NCBI GenBank assembly: GCA_036518215.1
Contig: DATDNP010000083.1
Coordinates: forward strand, 1 to 51,861
DNA: 51,861 bases
Reading direction: 5' to 3'
From: Candidatus Limnocylindria bacterium
GTDB lineage: Bacteria; Chloroflexota; Limnocylindria; P2-11E
The first letter of the stretch is position 1. Each line of letters starts with the position of its first letter. Shown in pieces: positions 9,696 to 48,060 of this stretch. The position numbers were made by a program, and so were the translations under genes. The notes beneath the pieces were generated by a model. It ran no database searches. It was given only the letters and a program-made list of their open reading frames with translations, and had not been told where the DNA came from.

Positions 9696-9714
9696 GGGCG
9701 CGTGCGAGTGTACG

Positions 9715-9723
9715 TGTTACGAT
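9715..9723 (+). promoter_or_regulatory. Extended -10 promoter (TGnTACGAT) for the SAM-I/met operon
   Basis: TG-T-TACGAT at 9715-9723, 16 nt before the aptamer. A divergent TACACT on the minus strand (9707-9712) may serve the FTCD-C gene. Confidence 0.55.
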
Positions 9724-9739
9724 GCCGCGAACGCGGTCC

Positions 9740-9840
9740 CTTTCATCCAGAGAGGCTGAGGGAACGGCCCGATGACGCCTCGGCAACCGGCGGAGACCCG
9801 CAGTGGTGCCAACTCCGGCCCGACAAGGGAAAGATGAGAG
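9740..9840 (+). ncRNA. SAM-I (S-box) riboswitch
   Basis: CTTTCATCCAGAGAGG-CTGAGGGA-ACGGCCC-GATGACGCC-TCGGCAACC...GGTGCCAACTCC...AAGATGAGAG matches the S-box consensus. P1 is 9740-9747 paired with 9833-9840. It lies upstream of metF and metE. Confidence 0.94.
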
Positions 9841-9849
9841 GTCAGAAGT

Positions 9850-10767
9850 TTGAGCGCATTCACAGAGCTCATCGGTCGCGGCGAGTTCGTCGTCACGGCC
9901 GAGCTCAATCCCCCGAAGAGCGCCGCCGCGAGCGTCGTGCGTCGCCGCGCGAGCGTGCTCAAGGGGTACGCCGATGCGGTGAACATCACCGACAGCAATC
10001 GCGCGGTCGTCGCGATGGCCGCGATCCCCGCCGCCGTCCTCGTGCGTGAGGCCGGGGTCGAGCCGATCGTGCAGATGACCGGCCGCGATCGCAACCGCAT
10101 CGCGCTCCAGGCGGATCTCCTCGGCGCGAACGCGCTCGGACTCGAGCACTTCGTGTTCATGAGCGGCGACGACCCGAAGCAGGGGAACCATCCCGACGCG
10201 GTGAACGTGAAGGACCTCGACGGGATCGGCCTCGTGAAGATGGCCGTCCGGATGCGCGATGAGGGGAAGTTCCTGTCCGGGGACGAGCTGAAGCAGCCGC
10301 CACGCTACGTCGTGGGAGCGACCGCGTCACCGTTCACGAAGCCGATGGAGGCCGACGTCGCGAAGACGGTCGAGAAGATCGCGGCCGGCGCCGACTTCCT
10401 GCAGACCCAGCCGGTGTTCGACCTCGCGACCTTCGGCCGCTGGCTGGCCGAGGTCCGGCGCGCGGCTCCGCGGAACGTCGCGATCATCGCGGGCGTCTTC
10501 GTGCTGCGCTCGGCCGAGCAGGCCGAGCGGCTCGCGAAGATCCCGGGACTCGCGCTCGGCCCCGACGTGCTCGAGCGGATGAAGCGAGCGGACGACGCGG
10601 AGGCGGAAGGCGTCTCGCTCGCGGTCGAGATGGTGCGAAGCCTGCGCAAGCTGCCGGGGGTCGGCGGCGTGCATCTGTATGCGATCGAATGGCCGGAGGG
10701 CGTCGCGCGCGTCGTCGAAGGCGCCGGCCTCTACCCGCGAGCGAAAGTGAAGGAGGCCGTCCATTGA
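9850..10767 (+). CDS. metF: Methylenetetrahydrofolate reductase
   Basis: FVVTAELNPPK, AVNITDS, TGRDRNRIALQADLLGA, SGDDP, KIAAGADFLQTQPVFD and GVHLY. Confidence 0.92.
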   Translation: MSAFTELIGRGEFVVTAELNPPKSAAASVVRRRASVLKGYADAVNITDSNRAVVAMAAIPAAVLVREAGVEPIVQMTGRDRNRIALQADLLGANALGLEHFVFMSGDDPKQGNHPDAVNVKDLDGIGLVKMAVRMRDEGKFLSGDELKQPPRYVVGATASPFTKPMEADVAKTVEKIAAGADFLQTQPVFDLATFGRWLAEVRRAAPRNVAIIAGVFVLRSAEQAERLAKIPGLALGPDVLERMKRADDAEAEGVSLAVEMVRSLRKLPGVGGVHLYAIEWPEGVARVVEGAGLYPRAKVKEAVH

Positions 10768-15410: not shown

Positions 15411-16550
15411 TCAGCGGCCGTACAGCTCGAGGATCTCGCGCCGGAACGGGACGCCGGCCTTCTCGCGCAGGCGCTCGAACTCCTCGAAGTCCCACTCGCC
15501 GACGAACGTGACGGCGACGCCGGTCTCGCCGGCGCGACCCGTCCGACCGATGCGGTGCGTGAACGTCTCGGCGTCCTCGGGGAGGTCGTAGTTCACCACA
15601 TGGCTGATGTCCTCGATGTGGAGGCCGCGCGCCGCGAGGTTCGTCGCGATGAGGATCTTCACCTCGCCGCTTCGGAACTTCTCGAGCGTGCGCTCGCGCT
15701 CGCGCTGCGTCAGGTCCCCGTGGATCGCCGCGACCGCATGGCCGCGCCGCGTCACCTCATCGAGGAGACGGTCGACGCCGCGCTTCGTATGCCGGAAGAC
15801 GAGGACCTGCTCCGTCTCCCACCGCCGCAGGAGCTCCTCGAGCACGCGCGGCTTGTCCTCCTCGAGCACCTCGACGTACACCTGCTCGACGCTCTCGGTG
15901 GTCCGCCGCTCGGGATCGATGGCGATCTGGACGGGATCGTTCGTGAAGCGGTACGCGAGATCCTTGATCTCCCCGGTGAGCGTGGCGGAGAAGAGCGCGG
16001 TCTGACGCTGCTTCGGGACCATGCGCAGCAGGCGGCGGACATCGGGCGCGAATCCCATGTCGAGCAGGCGGTCGGCCTCGTCGAGCACGACGATGCGGAT
16101 CCCGTCCAGCTTCAGCGTGCCGCGCTGGATGTGATCGAGCAGTCGGCCCGGCGTGCCGATGATGATCTGGACGCCGCGCTTGAGCGCGCGCTCCTGCGGT
16201 CCGTACGGGACGCCGCCGTAGATCGCGACCTCGTGCGTATGTCGGAACTTCCCAAGCGCGCCGAACTCGCGTGTCACCTGCGTGGCGAGCTCGCGCGTCG
16301 GAACGACGACGAGCGCCTGCGGCCGCGCGTCGCCGGCATCGACGCGCGTGATGATCGGGATCGCGAACGCCGCGGTCTTGCCCGTCCCGGTCTGCGCCTG
16401 CGCGAGCACGTCGCGGCCCGCCTTGAGCGCCGGGATCGCCTGCGACTGCACGGGCGTCGGCACCATGAAGCCGAGCTCGTCGATCGCGCGCGCGACATCG
16501 GGATCGAGATCGAGATCGGCGAAGCCGCTGACCTTCGCGGTGTCTGTCAC
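15411..16550 (-). CDS. DEAD-box RNA helicase (minimal core)
   Basis: Q motif PTPVQ, AQTGTGKT, PTRELA, TPGRL, DEAD, SAT, HGDL and HRIGRTGRAG. GTGA overlap with the deoC stop. Confidence 0.95.
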   Translation of the reverse strand: MTDTAKVSGFADLDLDPDVARAIDELGFMVPTPVQSQAIPALKAGRDVLAQAQTGTGKTAAFAIPIITRVDAGDARPQALVVVPTRELATQVTREFGALGKFRHTHEVAIYGGVPYGPQERALKRGVQIIIGTPGRLLDHIQRGTLKLDGIRIVVLDEADRLLDMGFAPDVRRLLRMVPKQRQTALFSATLTGEIKDLAYRFTNDPVQIAIDPERRTTESVEQVYVEVLEEDKPRVLEELLRRWETEQVLVFRHTKRGVDRLLDEVTRRGHAVAAIHGDLTQRERERTLEKFRSGEVKILIATNLAARGLHIEDISHVVNYDLPEDAETFTHRIGRTGRAGETGVAVTFVGEWDFEEFERLREKAGVPFRREILELYGR

Positions 16551-17236
16551 CCCTCGCCGCGCCGCTGGCGAAGCTCGTCGAGGATCGCTTTCGTCGACGA
16601 CGTACCGAGCCGGCTCGCACCCGCCTCGAGCATCGCGAGCGCGTCGTCGAGCGTCCGGATACCGCCGGCGGCCTTCACCCCGATCTTGTCGCCCACGACC
16701 TCGCGCAGCAGCCGCACGTCCTCGACGGTCGCACCCTCGGGTCCGAAGCCCGTCGAGGTCTTCACGAAGTCGGCATCCGCCGCGAGCGCGATCTGCGCCG
16801 CGATCGCCTTCTGCGCGTCGTCGAGATACGCGCACTCGAGGATGACCTTCACGATCGCCTCGTTCGCGTGCGCGAGACCGACCACCATCCCGACCTCGCG
16901 CTCGATCGTCGCGTAGTCCTTGTCGACGAGCGCGCCGATGTTGATCACCATGTCGAGCTCGACCGCGCCGTCACGAAGGGCGTTCGTCGCCGTCCCCACC
17001 TTCACCTCCGGCGCCTGACCGCCGTGCGGGAACCCGATGACGGTCGACGTGACGACCCCCGAGTCCTTGAGGAGCCGGACCGTGTCGGGCACGTAGAAGG
17101 GCTTGACGCACACGCTCGCGATGTGCTCTTTGCGCGCGATCGTGCACGCGTCGACGACATCGCGCTCACCCTGGGTCGGCTTGAGGACCGCGTGATCGAT
17201 GACGGAGGCCAGCTCGGGGACTGACGGTAAGCTCAT
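16547..17236 (-). CDS. deoC: Deoxyribose-phosphate aldolase
   Basis: IDHAVLKP, TVIGFPHG, ELDMVINIG, VKVILEC, FVKTSTGF and KAAGGIRT. Confidence 0.96.
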   Translation of the reverse strand: MSLPSVPELASVIDHAVLKPTQGERDVVDACTIARKEHIASVCVKPFYVPDTVRLLKDSGVVTSTVIGFPHGGQAPEVKVGTATNALRDGAVELDMVINIGALVDKDYATIEREVGMVVGLAHANEAIVKVILECAYLDDAQKAIAAQIALAADADFVKTSTGFGPEGATVEDVRLLREVVGDKIGVKAAGGIRTLDDALAMLEAGASRLGTSSTKAILDELRQRRGEG

Positions 17237-17299
17237 CGTCGCTTCGCGCCGATTCGCATAGGACCTGTCTTCGCAGGGGCTCCGCCCCTGCCACCCCGG
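17233..17299 (-). repeat. Bipartite palindromic leader cassette, copy 1 (deoC)
   Basis: Blocks 17233-17253 (21 nt) and 17270-17299 (30 nt) match 47918-47938 and 47956-47985 at 50 of 51 nt. Confidence 0.9.
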
Positions 17300-17310
17300 A
17301 CTACGGCCAT
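17233..17310 (-). CDS. Putative 25-aa upstream ORF coupled to deoC (MAVVRGGRGGAPAKTGPMRIGAKRR)
   Basis: GGAGG-aaca-ATG at 17310. Its TGA overlaps the deoC ATG (ATGA). Confidence 0.5.
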   Translation of the reverse strand: MAVVRGGRGGAPAKTGPMRIGAKRR

Positions 17311-17342
17311 TGTTCCTCCAGTATCGCGGGTATGCTCGGCCG

Positions 17343-18488
17343 GTGCCTGGCTCGTTCCGGATCGCGCGGATCTTGGGCATCGACATCCGCGTGCATCTCT
17401 CCTGGCTGCTCATCTTCTTCCTCGTCACGTTCTCGCTCGCGAACGAGGTGTTCCCGTTCAACTATCCGACGTGGTCGGAGCAGAAGACGATCATCGTCTC
17501 GGCGATCGCGGCGCTCCTGTTCTTCTGCTCCGTCGTCGTCCACGAGTTCGCGCACGCGCTCGTCGCGCGCCGGTTCCGCATGTCGGTGTCGTCGATCACG
17601 CTGTTCCTCCTCGGCGGCGTCGCGAGCCTGACGAAGGAGCCGCCGAGCGCGAAGGCCGAGTTCTTCATGGCGGCGGCGGGTCCCGCGACCAGCCTCGTCA
17701 TCGGCGGCGTCGGCCTCGGCGTCGGAACGCTCGTCGGGAACTCGCTGGCGACCGCCCCGAGCCTTCAGCCGGTCGAGGCGATCGCCGGATACCTCGGCGA
17801 GGTGAACATCCTCGTCGCGCTCTTCAACCTCATCCCTGGGTTTCCGCTCGACGGCGGACGCGTCCTTCGCTCCGCCATCTGGGCGATCCGCGGCGACCGC
17901 GCGGCTGCGACGAAGATCGCCGCTCGCGGCGGGCAGGCCGTCGCGGGTCTCTTCGTCCTGTACGCCGCGTATCGCGTGCTCCAGCAGGACGTCGCGGGCC
18001 TCTGGTACGGCATCATCGCGTACTTCCTGTACGGGGCAGCCTCGCAGACGATGGAGCAGGAGCGCGTTGTGCGCGCCGTGGGAAGCGCGCGCGTCGCACA
18101 GCTCATGACGACGGACTTCCGCTCGACGACGCCCAACACGTCGATCGGAGACCTCGTGCGTGACGTCGTGCTCCCGTACAACCTGCGAGCGATCCCGGTC
18201 GTCGACGCCGCGCATCTCGTCGGCCTCGTCACGATCGGCGACCTGCGGAAGGTCGAACAGGATGCGTGGCCGACGACGCGCGTCGACGCCGTCATGACGC
18301 GGGTCGAGGATCTCTCGGTCGTGGGCGTGAACGACGATCTCGTCGTCGCGCTCGAGCGATTCGGTGCGGATGTGCCGCTCCTCGCGGTCGTCGACGCCAC
18401 GGGCGCGCTCGCCGGACTGCTCTATCGCGAATCGGTCATCGGGTACGTGCGCATGCGGGAGATGCTCGGCTTCGATCAGCGTCGCTGA
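17343..18488 (+). CDS. Site-2 protease (M50) with CBS-domain pair
   Basis: HEFAH, LFLLGGVA, AAAGP and FNLIPGFPLDGGR, followed by two CBS repeats. TATGCT -10 box lies 6 nt before GTG. Confidence 0.93.
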   Translation: MPGSFRIARILGIDIRVHLSWLLIFFLVTFSLANEVFPFNYPTWSEQKTIIVSAIAALLFFCSVVVHEFAHALVARRFRMSVSSITLFLLGGVASLTKEPPSAKAEFFMAAAGPATSLVIGGVGLGVGTLVGNSLATAPSLQPVEAIAGYLGEVNILVALFNLIPGFPLDGGRVLRSAIWAIRGDRAAATKIAARGGQAVAGLFVLYAAYRVLQQDVAGLWYGIIAYFLYGAASQTMEQERVVRAVGSARVAQLMTTDFRSTTPNTSIGDLVRDVVLPYNLRAIPVVDAAHLVGLVTIGDLRKVEQDAWPTTRVDAVMTRVEDLSVVGVNDDLVVALERFGADVPLLAVVDATGALAGLLYRESVIGYVRMREMLGFDQRR

Positions 18489-29785: not shown

Positions 29786-30910
29786 GTGGGCATCCCGGAC
29801 GCGCTGCGGCAAGAGCTGCTCGCGCTCTCACGCGAGATCCATGCCGATCCTGAGCTCGCGTACAAAGAGGAGCGCGCGGCCGCGCGCATCGCCGCGCTCA
29901 TAGAGCGTCACGGCATCGCCGTCGAGCGCGGTATCGGTGGCCTCGCGACGGCGTTCCGCGCGCGCGTCGGGCCGGCGGGGAAGAGCGTGGCGCTTCTTGC
30001 TGAGTACGACGCGCTCGCAGGCGTCGGCCACGGCTGCGGCCACAACCTCATCGCGATGACGAACGTCGGCGCGTTCCTGCTCGCTGCGACCGATCCGACA
30101 CAGCTCTCCGCTCCTCTCGAGCTCATCGGCACGCCCGCAGAAGAGGACGGCGGCGGGAAGATCGACCTGCTCACCGCCGGCGTGTTCGACGACGTCGCGG
30201 TCGCCCTCTCCACACATCCGGCGGCGCAGGCGGTCTGGGTCGTGAGCGGGACGGGGCTCGGGATCGTGGGCAAGCGTGTCATCTACCGCGGGCAGGCGTC
30301 GCATGCCGGGTCGTCGCCGGAGAAGGGGCGCAACGCGCTCAACGGTCTCATCCGCCTCTTCACGGGCATCGACGGGTGGCGTCAGCAGCTGCCGTCGGAG
30401 TCGCGCGTCCACGGCATCATCGACTTCGGCGGTGACGCCGTGAACGTCGTGCCCGCGCGGGCCGAGGGCCGCTTCGGGATCCGCGCGAAGGACCGCGCGA
30501 CGCTCGACGACATGGTGACGTGGTTCACCGACATCGCGCAGGGCGCGGCGCTCGAGACGGGCACGACGGTCGAGATCACCGACTACCTCCCGCTCTACCT
30601 GCCGGTCGCGGCGAACACGAAGATCGGCGACGTCATCGCGGCCGAGCTTCGCGCGCGCGGCGTCGAGCCGGAGCGCGGATCGCTCGTCACCGCGTCGACG
30701 GACCTCGGGAACGTGTCGCAGAAGGTGCCGACGGATTGGATCCGCTTCCCTGTGACCGAGCACGCGATACCGGGTCACTCCGACGAGATGCGCGAGGCGT
30801 GCGTGAGCGATCTCGCGCACGACAACGCCTTCATCGTTGTCGAGACGCTCGGTTGGGCCGCGCGGAAGCTCGCGACGGACGGCGTGCTGCGGGCGAAGGT
30901 CAGCTCATGA
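29786..30910 (+). CDS. M20 amidohydrolase (ACY1L2/AbgB-like), paralog 1
   Basis: EIHADPEL, LAEYDAL, GHGCGHNLIA, GTPAEEDGGGK, GRNAL and STDLGNVS. Start is uncertain. Confidence 0.9.
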   Translation: MGIPDALRQELLALSREIHADPELAYKEERAAARIAALIERHGIAVERGIGGLATAFRARVGPAGKSVALLAEYDALAGVGHGCGHNLIAMTNVGAFLLAATDPTQLSAPLELIGTPAEEDGGGKIDLLTAGVFDDVAVALSTHPAAQAVWVVSGTGLGIVGKRVIYRGQASHAGSSPEKGRNALNGLIRLFTGIDGWRQQLPSESRVHGIIDFGGDAVNVVPARAEGRFGIRAKDRATLDDMVTWFTDIAQGAALETGTTVEITDYLPLYLPVAANTKIGDVIAAELRARGVEPERGSLVTASTDLGNVSQKVPTDWIRFPVTEHAIPGHSDEMREACVSDLAHDNAFIVVETLGWAARKLATDGVLRAKVSS

Positions 30911-32022
30911 GCAGCAGCCTGCGCGACGATCTCATCGTCCTGTCGCTCGCGATCCACGGATCGCCGGAGCTCGCGTACCACGAGCGGCAGGCCGTCGCGA
31001 ACATCGCGGCGCTCCTCCACCGCCATGGGCACGATGTGGAACAGCACGTCGGTGGGGTCGAGACCGCGTTCCGCGCCCACGTCGGCCCGGCGGGCCCGTC
31101 GATCGCGCTGCTCGCCGAGTACGACGCGCTTCCGGAGATCGGCCACGCGTGCGGGCACAACCTCATCGCCATGTCGAACGTCGGCGCGTTCCTGCTCGCC
31201 GCGCAGCGGGAGCGGGACCTGCAGGTCGGCATCGAGCTCATCGGGACGCCGGCCGAGGAGTCCGGAGGCGGCAAGATCGACCTCATCGACGCGGGCGTGT
31301 TCAAGGATTCGGTCGCGGTGCTGTCGTCGCACCCGGGCCCGAACGAATGGGAGTTCGGCGGGGCGAGCCTCGGCATCGTCGGGAAGGTCGTCCGCTTCCA
31401 CGGCGTCGCGTCACATGCCGCCTACTCGCCGCACGCCGGACGGAATGCCCTCAACGCCGCGATCCGGCTGTTCCTCGCTGTGGACGGCTGGCGCCAGCAC
31501 CTTCCCGCTGACACGCGCGTGCACGGGATCATCACCAAGGGCGGCGCCGCGTCGAACATCATCCCCGACCTCGCCGAGTGCGAGTGGGGCCTTCGCGCGG
31601 CGAAGCTCGACGTCCTTCATGACATGGTCGACACGTTCCGGCGCATGTGCGACGGCGCCGCGATGCAGACCGGCACGACGGTCGAGCTCGACGAGAAGAT
31701 GCGCCTATACGAACCGGTCGAGCCGAATCCGAAGATCGGCGATCTCCTCGCCGCTGAGCTGGCCTCGCGCAAGATCGCGCCCATCCGCGGCAAGCTGACG
31801 CTCGCGTCGACGGACTTCGGGAACATCTCGCATGTCGCGCCCGCCGACTACATCGGATTCCCGGTGTCCCCGACGTGGATACCCGGCCACTCGCACCAGA
31901 TGCGCGACGCATCGGCGACGGATCTCGCCCACAAGAACGCCATGATCACCGCCGAGATCCTTGCGAACGTCGCGGTGAAGATCGCGACCGATCGCGCGAC
32001 GCGCGACAGCCTGCGCGCCTAA
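30907..32022 (+). CDS. M20 amidohydrolase (ACY1L2/AbgB-like), paralog 2
   Basis: ATGA overlap. LAEYDAL, GHACGHNLIA, GTPAEESGGGK, GRNAL and STDFGNIS. Confidence 0.9.
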   Translation: MSSSLRDDLIVLSLAIHGSPELAYHERQAVANIAALLHRHGHDVEQHVGGVETAFRAHVGPAGPSIALLAEYDALPEIGHACGHNLIAMSNVGAFLLAAQRERDLQVGIELIGTPAEESGGGKIDLIDAGVFKDSVAVLSSHPGPNEWEFGGASLGIVGKVVRFHGVASHAAYSPHAGRNALNAAIRLFLAVDGWRQHLPADTRVHGIITKGGAASNIIPDLAECEWGLRAAKLDVLHDMVDTFRRMCDGAAMQTGTTVELDEKMRLYEPVEPNPKIGDLLAAELASRKIAPIRGKLTLASTDFGNISHVAPADYIGFPVSPTWIPGHSHQMRDASATDLAHKNAMITAEILANVAVKIATDRATRDSLRA

Positions 32023-46782: not shown

Positions 46783-47921
46783 TAGCGCGATCCCTTCGCG
46801 AGACGCACGGCCTCGGCGGCTGCCTCGTCCATCGTGGCGCGCGACTCGAGCGGGGCGCCCACGAGCAGCTTGCGGCCCGCCTCAGCCTCGGTGCCGGAGA
46901 GACGGATCACGAGCGGCACCTCCGGCGGATGCTGCGCGATGACCGAGAGGATCCCCTTCGCGACCTCGTCGCCGCGCGTGATGCCGCCGAAGATGTTGAT
47001 GAGCACGCTCTTCACGTTCTTGTTCGCGAGCACGATCTCGAGCGCGGCCTTCACGACGGCTTCCTTCGCGCCGCCGCCCACGTCGAGGAAGTTCGCGGCG
47101 CGGCCACCGGCGTTGCGCACGGCGTCGAGCGTGCCCATGACGAGACCGGCGCCGTTGCCGATGATGCCGACGTCCCCATCGAGCTGGACGTAGCTGAAGC
47201 CGAGCGCGCGGGCGCGCTCCTCGACCTCCTCGTCGGGGCTCACTTCCTTCCAGTCGCGCAGCTCGGGCTGACGGAACAGCGCGTTGTCGTCGATGTCGAG
47301 CTTCGCGTCGCCCGCGAGGACCGAGCCGTCGGTCTGGATGAAGAGCGGGTTGATCTCGATGAGCATCGCATCGGTCTTCGCGTACACGCCGTACAGCCGC
47401 TGCGCGATGTCGGTGACCGCGTTGCGCTGCTCCGCCGGCACGCCGGCGTCGAAGCAGAGCGCGCGGGCCTGATACGGCAGGAGGCCGAGCACCGGATCGG
47501 GCCATCCGCGGGCGATCTTCTCCGGCGTCGTCGCGGCGACCTCTTCGATGTCCATGCCGCCGACGGTCGAGAGCATGACGACGGCACGGCGGCGATCGCG
47601 GTCGAGGGTGATGCCGAGATAGAGCTCCTTCGCGATCTGCGCGCCGCGCTCGACGTACACCTTGCGCACGCGGAGTCCCTTGATCTGCATGTGGAGGATC
47701 GCCTTCGCGTGCTCGCCGGCCTCGGCCGGCGTCTTCGCGACCTTGATGCCCCCGGCCTTGCCGCGTCCGCCCGCGTGGACCTGCGCCTTCACGACGACGG
47801 TGCCGCCGAGCGCGCGCGCGGCGGCCTCGGCCTCTTCGGGGGTCGTGGCGATCCGGCCTTCGGGTACGGGGATGCCGGCGCGCGCGAGCAGTTGTTTGGC
47901 CTGGTACTCGTGCAGCTTCAT
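46782..47921 (-). CDS. sucC: Succinyl-CoA synthetase beta subunit
   Basis: MKLHEYQAK, VKAQVHAGGRGKAGG, GGMDIEEVA, EINPL, DAKLDIDDNALFRQ, GNGAGL, NFLDVGGG and INIFGGITRGD. Confidence 0.98.
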   Translation of the reverse strand: MKLHEYQAKQLLARAGIPVPEGRIATTPEEAEAAARALGGTVVVKAQVHAGGRGKAGGIKVAKTPAEAGEHAKAILHMQIKGLRVRKVYVERGAQIAKELYLGITLDRDRRRAVVMLSTVGGMDIEEVAATTPEKIARGWPDPVLGLLPYQARALCFDAGVPAEQRNAVTDIAQRLYGVYAKTDAMLIEINPLFIQTDGSVLAGDAKLDIDDNALFRQPELRDWKEVSPDEEVEERARALGFSYVQLDGDVGIIGNGAGLVMGTLDAVRNAGGRAANFLDVGGGAKEAVVKAALEIVLANKNVKSVLINIFGGITRGDEVAKGILSVIAQHPPEVPLVIRLSGTEAEAGRKLLVGAPLESRATMDEAAAEAVRLAKGSR

Positions 47922-47985
47922 CGTCGCTTCGCGCCGATGAAGACAACACCCTCTTTTCGCAGGGGCTCTGCCCCTGCCACCCCGG
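47918..47985 (-). repeat. Bipartite palindromic leader cassette, copy 2 (sucC)
   Basis: Same two blocks as 17233-17299, with a 17-nt rather than 16-nt variable spacer. Again includes the start codon. Confidence 0.9.
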
Positions 47986-48060
47986 CAGGGTCGTGGCGGA
48001 CGTGGAGCGCTGAGGTCTGCAAGGCGTTCACCGGGTCAGCCCGAGGATATCGTCGCGCGC

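Follow-up and report, generated by a model that had tools for sequence, protein, structure and literature searches.

How can a gene be translated when its start codon is buried in a hairpin, is not preceded by any Shine-Dalgarno (SD) motif and is overlapped by the stop codon of a short upstream open reading frame (ORF)? The question is raised by deoC in a stretch of 51,861 nucleotides from Candidatus Limnocylindria bacterium (an uncultured soil member of the Chloroflexota; GenBank assembly GCA_036518215.1, contig DATDNP010000083.1), hereafter called the window. An earlier note on this DNA had compared the region with mycobacterial MIRUs and had proposed a portable cassette, in which a start codon lies in a hairpin behind an overlapping ORF and initiation depends on ribosomes traversing the repeat. 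The proposal agrees with every comparative test run, and the comparative evidence supports it, with amendments. The feature at deoC is probably a copy of a MIRU-like insertion repeat, which would keep its host gene expressed through translational coupling. We infer that the upstream frame is translated and that DeoC depends on it; the way in which the repeat moves is likewise inferred.

The deoC locus with and without the repeat

The features of the deoC locus are listed with their coordinates on the minus strand.

16547..17236, minus strand: deoC, deoxyribose-phosphate aldolase, 229 aa (Pfam PF01791, E = 2.4e-16)
17233..17310, minus strand: upstream ORF of 25 codons, MAVVRGGRGGAPAKTGPMRIGAKRR (ORF listing and frame analysis)
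17308..17310, minus strand: ancestral deoC start codon, at which the 25-codon upstream ORF now begins (alignment of empty sites)
17237..17307, minus strand: inserted repeat, 71 nt between the two ATG codons, 74 nt with one ATG (empty orthologous sites)
17273..17291, minus strand: hairpin 1, GCAGGGGC-GGA-GCCCCTGC (folds at -17.2 kcal/mol)
17258..17270, minus strand: purine-rich, A/U-richer spacer between the hairpins, AGACAGGTCCTAT (sequence)
17231..17257, minus strand: hairpin 2, a stem of 12 positions with a GAA triloop (folds at -10.4 kcal/mol; covariation)
17315..17319, minus strand: GGAGG, which could serve the upstream frame as an SD, 4 nt 5' of the ancestral ATG (sequence)
17320..17325, minus strand: -10-like hexamer GATACT, a putative promoter element with 9 nt between its end and the ancestral deoC ATG (spacing kept in orthologs)

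The name deoxyribose-phosphate aldolase is that of DeoC homologs with 90-92% identity from Candidatus Limnocylindria and Limnocylindrales. The deoC ATG (17236-17234) is overlapped as ATGA by the TGA of the upstream ORF (17235-17233), and the deoC frame contains no start codon inside the module. The 3' arm of hairpin 2 contains both this ATG and codon 2. Both hairpins of the earlier note were found in place, as were its GGAGG-aaca-ATG and its 25-codon frame with the terminal ATGA. The start-codon hairpin, ATCGGCGC-GAA-GCGACGAT or ATCG-G-CGC-GAA-GCG-A-CGAT, is indeed present at 17253-17235, but had been drawn too short, the real stem having 12 positions and extending from 17257 to 17231. An independent Logan assembly contig (L001) has a sequence identical to that of the window at this locus, and the arrangement is therefore not an assembly artefact.

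Six orthologous loci (L137, L138 and L141-L144), encoding DeoC proteins that are 84-92% identical, lack the module and keep the gene order of the window, which in them runs M50 peptidase gene (minus), deoC (plus) and DEAD-box helicase gene. These empty sites read ...GAGCATA..GC[G/C]ATACT, followed by 9 nt and ATGAG..., so that the distance from the [G/C]ATACT hexamer to the old ATG is the same in all six and in the window. Homology of the flank extends as far as this old ATG, and in the window the sequence is ...GAGCATACCCGCGATACT GGAGGAACA ATG, then 71 nt, then ATG AGC TTA.... According to the alignment, the insertion thus comprises 74 nt that directly follow the ancestral deoC ATG, and the start of the upstream ORF is the former start of deoC. 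The 25-residue ORF of the earlier note does exist and does end over the deoC ATG, but as a gene it is not conserved, and its ATG once started deoC itself. The GGAGG is absent from the empty orthologs, which have TGAGTGCAG, TGATGGCAC and similar sequences there. Among the deoC loci compared, only the window and the Logan contig are filled. A more distant relative (L139, DeoC 82% identical) carries another filling of the same site, where an ORF of 96 aa (9714-10004), with no Pfam match, lies between the GATACT hexamer and deoC and ends in ATGA over the deoC start.

The window contains a second copy of the module at the start of sucC, identified as such by the SucC domains in Pfam. Each hairpin sequence occurs twice in the window, compared to 0.04-0.05 expected by chance. 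When the 51.9 kb are searched with a covariance model of the 71-nt module, exactly two copies are recovered, with scores of 87.4 bits at sucC and 86.6 bits at deoC (17230-17299), the next match scoring 13 bits. Both copies are single and not tandem.

47915..47985, minus strand: second module copy, at the sucC start (covariance model, 87.4 bits)
47959-47977, minus strand: hairpin 1 of the sucC copy (sequence)
47916-47942, minus strand: hairpin 2 of the sucC copy, with closing pairs CUUC/GAAG (sequence)
48029..48031, minus strand: ancestral sucC GTG, in frame and 37 codons upstream of the TGA over the new sucC ATG (empty sucC sites)

The sucC ATG (47921-47919, minus) occupies the same position in the module, being reached through an identical ...ATCGGCGCGAAGCGACGATGA. 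Empty sucC sites are found at three loci (L047, L061 and L086), which read ...GACGATATCCTCGG..CCC|GTGAAGCTCCAC. The junction between sucC and sucD is empty in the window (TAATG), and several other lineages have the module there, between the sucC stop and the sucD start; in these the old ATGA is kept at the left junction. Both junctions of the module carry the start codon, often with 2-4 further nt (NTGAG); the length of this repeated sequence varies. Inspection of the module ends revealed no terminal inverted repeats.

The repeat family and its start-codon hairpin

Searches with the two hairpin patterns suggested in the earlier note recovered a dispersed family. The 20-mer from that note, scanned against one genome per species, gave 15 loci, six of which are true members. 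All six are metagenome-assembled genomes (MAGs) of Chloroflexota, one of them named Candidatus Limnocylindria. Each has hairpin 1 upstream, and the gene that begins at the embedded ATG differs from one to the next. The remaining nine, from other phyla and without hairpin 1, were set aside as chance matches or unrelated sequences. In one myxobacterial MAG, a Labilithrix, the 20-mer ATCGGCGCGAAGCGACGATG occurs three times (L007, L013 and L014), each time followed by GAGGG and without hairpin 1; similar short ORFs (MRGT...AQAQRAFAR) accompany it at least in L013 and L014, and it is probably an unrelated repeat of that genome.

The hairpin-1 pattern was scanned against metagenome contigs and gave at least 120 loci. 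A composite copy was defined as hairpin 1, a spacer of 16-18 nt and hairpin 2, where the spacer count includes the four nucleotides of the outer stem. Among the matches listed in both scans there are at least 41 distinct composite copies, found in Limnocylindria-type Chloroflexota MAGs and in soil metagenomes. As regards the position and frame of the copies, for which the earlier note had suggested a test, all 41 lie on the strand of the downstream gene and have its start codon (GTG in two copies, ATG in the others) at one fixed position of the module, and their frame is uninterrupted. All complete ORFs that begin at the module start have at least 61 codons, and those of at least 40 codons have a G+C content at third codon positions (GC3) of 0.81-0.98. 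The two hairpins are nearly invariant across copies and the spacer is variable.

The host genes are unrelated to one another and encode DeoC, SucC, SucD, AccD, GcvH, CoaX, NlpC/P60, a Zn-dependent alcohol dehydrogenase, an MR/MLE enzyme, a FabH-like enzyme and a bicupin; a further putative host gene, judged from N-terminal resemblance alone, encodes a xanthine-dehydrogenase-type large subunit. A riboswitch for a shared metabolite was rejected because the host genes are functionally unrelated. Rfam, applied at the gathering score to the window and seven loci, matched nothing at the element, and a permissive scan of 17150-17400 (E <= 10) gave nothing relevant. The only Rfam match in the window is a SAM riboswitch (RF00162, 83.1 bits, E = 3.2e-18) at 9740-9840 on the plus strand. 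A literature search on Limnocylindria repeats or start-codon hairpin cassettes found nothing specific.

Some copies depart from the common form. Two (L003, 5690-5785, minus; L015, 1527-1623, plus) have about 30 extra nucleotides in the loop of hairpin 1 (...AGGGGCCCC.CCCCCT...), retain the closing stem and score 51-64 bits with the model. A decayed composite copy (L053, minus) lies about 80 nt upstream of a sucD-like GTG, with hairpin 2 truncated (ATCGGCGCGAAGCGAC|TTTCAG) and no start codon in register. Module copies can thus degenerate.

The local fold at deoC is modest. The region of 146 nt has a folding z-score of -0.53 against shuffles, which is unexceptional. A single large structure was rejected in favor of two independent hairpins, because the whole region folds no better than shuffled sequence on either strand. 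Hairpin 1 has z = -3.0 and hairpin 2 z = -1.5; the stability of hairpin 2 ranges across copies from the -10.4 kcal/mol of deoC to -20.8 kcal/mol. It is the recurrence of the hairpins, not the local fold, that gives them significance.

The outer stem of hairpin 2 is formed by the four nucleotides 5' of its 8-nt arm, which pair with the G of the start codon and positions +4 to +6. The closing pairs differ among the copies (GCUC/GAGC; CUUC/GAAG in the sucC copy of the window; UUUC/GAAA; UCUC/GAGA). The deoC copy closes with GCGA/GAGC, including two G.A mismatches, and codon 2 is thus within the stem. Covariation was calculated over 37 distinct copies and compared with 500 shuffles. In hairpin 2, 83.6% of the cells are paired, compared to 67.9% in the shuffles, and seven of the 12 pairs have changes on both sides. 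The covariation score of 0.344, compared to 0.108 in the shuffles, was reached by none of the 500. The inner eight pairs are biased, because they were used in selecting the copies, but the two outermost pairs were not so used. These two are never unpaired (GC 20, GU 6, CG 4, UA 3, AU 2 and UG 2 in one; CG 32 and UA 5 in the other) and follow synonymous codon-2 differences at the same host gene, AAA/UUU versus AAG/CUU and AGA/UCU versus AGG/CCU. Judged from these substitution patterns, hairpin 2 is under structural selection. Its inner stem has two versions, ATCGGCGC/GCGACGAT and ATGGCGGC/GCCGACAT, both of which occur at sucD in different lineages. Two other structural ideas were dropped: an outer helix between the 5' flank (GUACCC) and the spacer (GGGU), which on inspection was inconsistent and present in few copies, and a CsrA-type GGA loop, because the loop of hairpin 1 varies (GGA, GAA, GCA, AGA and others).

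Translation of the host gene and rival explanations

In each of the 41 copies, the frame whose TGA overlaps the main start codon is open for at least 26 codons, and each has an ATGA or GTGA overlap at the module start. Between hairpin 1 and the start codon no stop triplet occurs in this coupling frame, compared to 6 and 14 in the other two. Position +4 is A in all 41 copies, compared to 31 of 62 ordinary genes of close relatives, and this holds with U as well as with G as the stem partner. An invariant A is what a required UGA would predict; pairing alone would not predict it. A spacer of 16, 17 or 18 nt shifts the frame through hairpin 1, while the register of the ATGA is constant. As a result the peptide reads GGRGGAPAK, GVAGAEPLR or GWQGRSPCE depending on spacer length. 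A conserved leader peptide was therefore rejected, the spacer also lacking a coding-type GC3. Selection looks to have acted on the passage of ribosomes and not on the peptide product. A GC3-based heuristic for upstream ORFs proved noisy, alternative frames also scoring high, and only cases checked by translation were used.

Most copies contain a short in-frame ORF of 6-8 codons that starts just 5' of hairpin 2. In 18 of the 20 copies of the window type, an ATG, GTG or TTG stands two codons before the 5' arm (NTG CGA ATC GGC GCG AAG CGA CGA TGA). Copies of the second type that have ATG as the main start carry ATG or GTG at the start of the arm, where it is nearly forced by pairing with the main start. 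At two loci (L097 and L042) a relay is seen: the upstream gene reads through hairpin 1 (...GVAGAxPLRKEV*), its TGA overlaps the ATG of the short ORF (TGATG), and the short ORF then stops over the main ATG (ATGA). The earlier note was also right that the deoC start has no SD, since none of the 41 main starts of the modules reaches -6 kcal/mol against the canonical anti-SD sequence. Matches of at least this strength precede 37% of the short-ORF starts and 16% of background positions, which points to a modest excess over background.

A missing SD is ordinary in this clade, an SD core (GGAG, GAGG or AGGA) being present in 17 of 62 called genes (27%) of close relatives (L137-L140). In these relatives TANNNT hexamers cluster with a gap of 6-7 nt before start codons, and 13 of the 62 genes have one within 5-12 nt of the start, compared to one of 62 in a control window. 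A spacing of 6-7 nt between TANNNT and the start usually marks leaderless mRNAs, and initiation that is leaderless or independent of an SD seems to be common in the clade. At deoC the -10-like GATACT ends 9 nt before the old ATG. This ATG may therefore lie close to, or coincide with, the 5' end of the mRNA, and if the deoC mRNA has little or no leader, the GGAGG may lie outside the transcript.

From these elements the following course of events can be proposed. The old ATG (17310) would keep its former driver, be it a leaderless 5' end or the GGAGG, and would now open the 25-codon frame. This frame would cross hairpin 1, the A/U-richer spacer and hairpin 2, ending at the UGA over the new AUG (AUGA), which together with codon 2 would be paired in the 3' arm of hairpin 2 with no SD in front. 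Ribosomes, having entered at the old ATG or at the internal in-frame ATG 17259 (17259-17257, minus; its A and T belong to the spacer), would unwind hairpin 2, terminate at the UGA and restart on the overlapping AUG. The hand-over might be termination-reinitiation, RNA unfolding, or both, and DeoC would thus still be produced despite the insertion. A hand-over from the upstream frame is the most economical reading, because an AUG that is buried in a stem and has no SD offers no obvious independent route of initiation.

Several observations weigh against this reading. Many of the 41 copies are orthologous, so that the counts overstate the number of independent events, and open frames are common at about 70% G+C. 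The spacer has no coding signature, its G+C content by codon position being 0.54, 0.51 and 0.32, compared to 0.70, 0.47 and 0.88 in host genes, and the upstream peptide differs between copies. At only -10.4 kcal/mol, hairpin 2 of deoC might open unaided. Four copies, namely the sucC copy of the window and those in L015, L056 and L069, have no start codon near hairpin 2, and the only candidate starts of the sucC copy, namely the old GTG, which is 37 codons upstream, and another GTG within the repeat, lack an SD. Furthermore, start codons within 36 nt to the left of the repeat fall into the three frames in 26, 8 and 21 copies; this in-frame enrichment is moderate, supporting but not decisive, and the stricter idea that an ancestral start always lies just left of the repeat and in frame was not used as decisive evidence.

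Hairpin 1 taken by itself behaves more like a REP-type repeat, with at least 112 distinct hits among the matches listed. About half of these are in sense orientation at discrete distances (-1, +3 to +8 and +34/35 nt) before a start codon, and others are at gene ends, inside ORFs or in tandem, with two or more units about 32-41 nt apart (L052, L078, L119, L129 and L071). Such abundance in several contexts fits a selfish or neutral palindromic repeat, REP- or MITE-like. Its hairpins would then serve its own mobility as DNA, the open frame and the ATGA would reflect which insertions survived, and DeoC would be initiated directly at the new AUG by breathing of the hairpin or by 70S scanning from the 5' end. 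The polymorphism of the module between relatives fits this explanation, as do the GTAG or GTAC found 5' of hairpin 1 in many copies, like the heads of REPs, and the prevalence of SD-less initiation in the clade. Survivorship alone, however, would not keep the +4 A and a stop-free frame across diverged sucD and accD orthologs. The compensatory changes between orthologous copies follow codon 2 of the host, which indicates selection at each locus after insertion, and no terminal inverted repeats were seen at the module ends. We regard an element of this kind, without coupling, as doubtful.

The covariation itself, which shows selection on hairpin 2 as a structure with the AUG and codon 2 inside it, could also be accounted for by a cis-regulatory RNA. 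Here hairpin 2 would sequester the start until a trans-acting agent (an RNA-binding protein, a helicase, temperature or a small RNA) opens it, the frame being incidental, as the missing coding signature would allow. The near invariance of both hairpins beside a varying spacer agrees with such a role. The explanation implies common translational control over the set of host genes, which do belong mostly to central metabolism, but have no pathway in common. The presence or absence of the module at the same gene among close relatives is unlike a conserved regulon. A regulatory RNA would also leave unexplained the +4 A with its two stem partners, the absence of in-frame stops and the TGATG/ATGA relays, and Rfam offered no match to the element in any of the scans described above. 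A thermometer in particular is opposed by stems of -14 to -21 kcal/mol with GNA triloops, which are too stable at soil temperatures. A cis-regulatory RNA of this kind is unlikely.

It is very improbable that the module acts on transcription as a promoter, terminator or attenuator of its own: both window loci are divergent intergenic positions and the spacer TATGCGAAT loosely resembles a -10 element, but across copies that sequence is not conserved, many copies sit within operons, where they separate a stop codon from the following start, a consensus scan of 17100-17500 found no promoter-like or terminator-like site, and neither hairpin is followed by the U-run of an intrinsic terminator (the following sequences are GAAGAC and AGCUUA).

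Related systems, solitary hairpins and neighboring genes

The coupled repeat favored here is closest in design to the MIRUs. According to PMC12548453, which refers to Supply et al. 1997, MIRUs insert at start codons and contain an internal ORF coupled at a spacing of -4 nt, and this overlap is thought to permit insertion with little cost to expression. The Limnocylindria module likewise is a short dispersed repeat of a high-G+C lineage rich in leaderless genes, is placed at start codons in gene orientation, and has an internal ORF whose stop overlaps the gene start at -4 nt (ATGA). Its 71 nt fall within the MIRU size of about 40-100 bp, and it occupies many loci. The two families, compared by description, differ in several respects. 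The host is not Mycobacterium, but a member of the phylum Chloroflexota, class Limnocylindria. The composite module is single at each locus and forms no variable-number tandem repeat array. Furthermore, it consists of two stable GNA-triloop hairpins, the second of which has the new start codon in its stem and shows covariation that involves codon 2. To our knowledge, a hairpin with these properties is not part of the MIRU description. The family is thus a second, structurally richer case of start-codon-inserting repeats, beside the MIRUs.

Structure-dependent translational coupling, as described in PMC12548453, involves a short leader ORF that ends on or next to the start of a gene whose ribosome-binding site is unusable or masked, so that a translating ribosome unfolds the RNA and reinitiates. 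The module has the corresponding parts, with an ATGA overlap, a start codon in a stem of 12 positions and no SD-like match in 41 copies. Synthetic bicistronic designs are mentioned in the same source. What distinguishes the Limnocylindria unit from these is that it is naturally repeated and carried by insertion to many genes, where coupling is predicted from sequence, and is neither an engineered part nor an operon junction peculiar to one locus. The overall design of the module also runs parallel to engineered bicistronic translation-initiation elements, of which the bicistronic design of Mutalik et al. 2013 is reportedly one.

REPs and REPINs, which are mobilized by RAYTs, resemble hairpin 1, a G+C-rich imperfect palindrome of about 27 nt in very many copies, sometimes tandem and often preceded by GTAG or GTAC. 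The head reads GTAG at deoC, and GTAC, GTAA or GTCC stand there in other copies; no such head is found in the sucC copy and in many of the second type. REPs, however, are typically extragenic, often 3' of genes and in either orientation, whereas the copies described here are in sense orientation at discrete distances from starts. Rickettsia palindromic elements (PMC10969869) measure about 150 bp and are inserted in frame, so that the host protein comes to include them. The likeness to them lies in palindromic repeats being tolerated in or near coding sequence through a preserved frame, and some copies of hairpin 1 are indeed read as part of the upstream protein, for instance SucC ...RGVAGAQPLRKEV* in L097. 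The deoC insertion differs in being 74 nt long (3n+2) and in forming a separate overlapping ORF instead of an in-frame extension.

MIRUs have so far been an isolated example of a start-codon-inserting repeat that apparently protects host expression by an overlapping ORF. A second, apparently unrelated family in another phylum would suggest a general solution for repeats in genomes that are SD-poor and rich in leaderless genes. The family offers clean filled and empty sites, a covarying start-codon hairpin and relay junctions (TGATG, then ATGA), and is a tractable natural test case for the old question of whether translational coupling works by RNA unfolding or by ribosome reinitiation. Context-insulating expression parts might also be drawn from it. 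It bears on the annotation of Limnocylindria MAGs as well, where gene callers are inconsistent on starts near modules and some upstream proteins are extended through hairpin 1.

A bolder extension, which we hold to be quite unlikely, is that the module is a self-contained mobile translation-initiation unit for an SD-poor, leaderless-rich clade, which lands on start codons. It may bring its own landing pad, consisting of the A/U-rich spacer with a GAGGA-like tract, the short ORF and the ATGA hand-over. The four nucleotides at the 5' foot of hairpin 2, which match the target start and codon 2, might act as a base-pairing guide to the target, by analogy with the guide sequences at the ends of IS200/IS605 elements; alternatively, they may have been re-tuned after insertion. 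If this were true, the module would be a portable, naturally occurring equivalent of the engineered bicistronic designs, and one whose start-codon targeting is programmable.

Copies of hairpin 1 without hairpin 2 (L021, L057, L058, L131, L043, L077, L041, L114 and others) directly precede gene starts. They are followed by GCGAGGA or GCGAAGA and a start codon 3-8 nt on, or the start overlaps the end of the repeat (...CTG CGA TGA, ATGA). The genes are rplK-, rpsN-, pgk-, eno- and sucD-like by N-terminal resemblance alone. In L122 the 5' half of hairpin 1 is duplicated. At five loci (L020, L032, L035, L079 and L108) a conserved non-coding stretch of about 250 nt lies downstream of hairpin 1. It opens with a long hairpin, GGCTATCGAGTCGTCC...GACAACTCGATAGCC, precedes a gene starting ...AKIKTGPKVKRKGGG and, as a putative structured leader, has no Rfam match.

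In the window, the TGA of deoC overlaps the GTG of the next gene, which encodes a DEAD-box helicase, as GTGA (GGGGTGACA, a -4 overlap at 16547-16550, minus). The two genes look translationally coupled, and the locus would thus already rely on -4 junctions. On the plus strand the neighbor of deoC is a divergent M50/CBS peptidase gene, for which the ORF list gives a start at TTG 17310. Gene calls in the orthologs make GTG 17343 the most likely start instead. A TATGCT hexamer lies 6 nt upstream of this GTG (plus), as in a leaderless-type start. With the start at 17343, the inserted repeat lies upstream of the M50 promoter region in antisense orientation. Elsewhere in the window, direct repeats with 72-80% identity, 1115 nt apart (29804-30088 and 30919-31203; 30117-30192 and 31232-31307), suggest two tandem paralogous genes.

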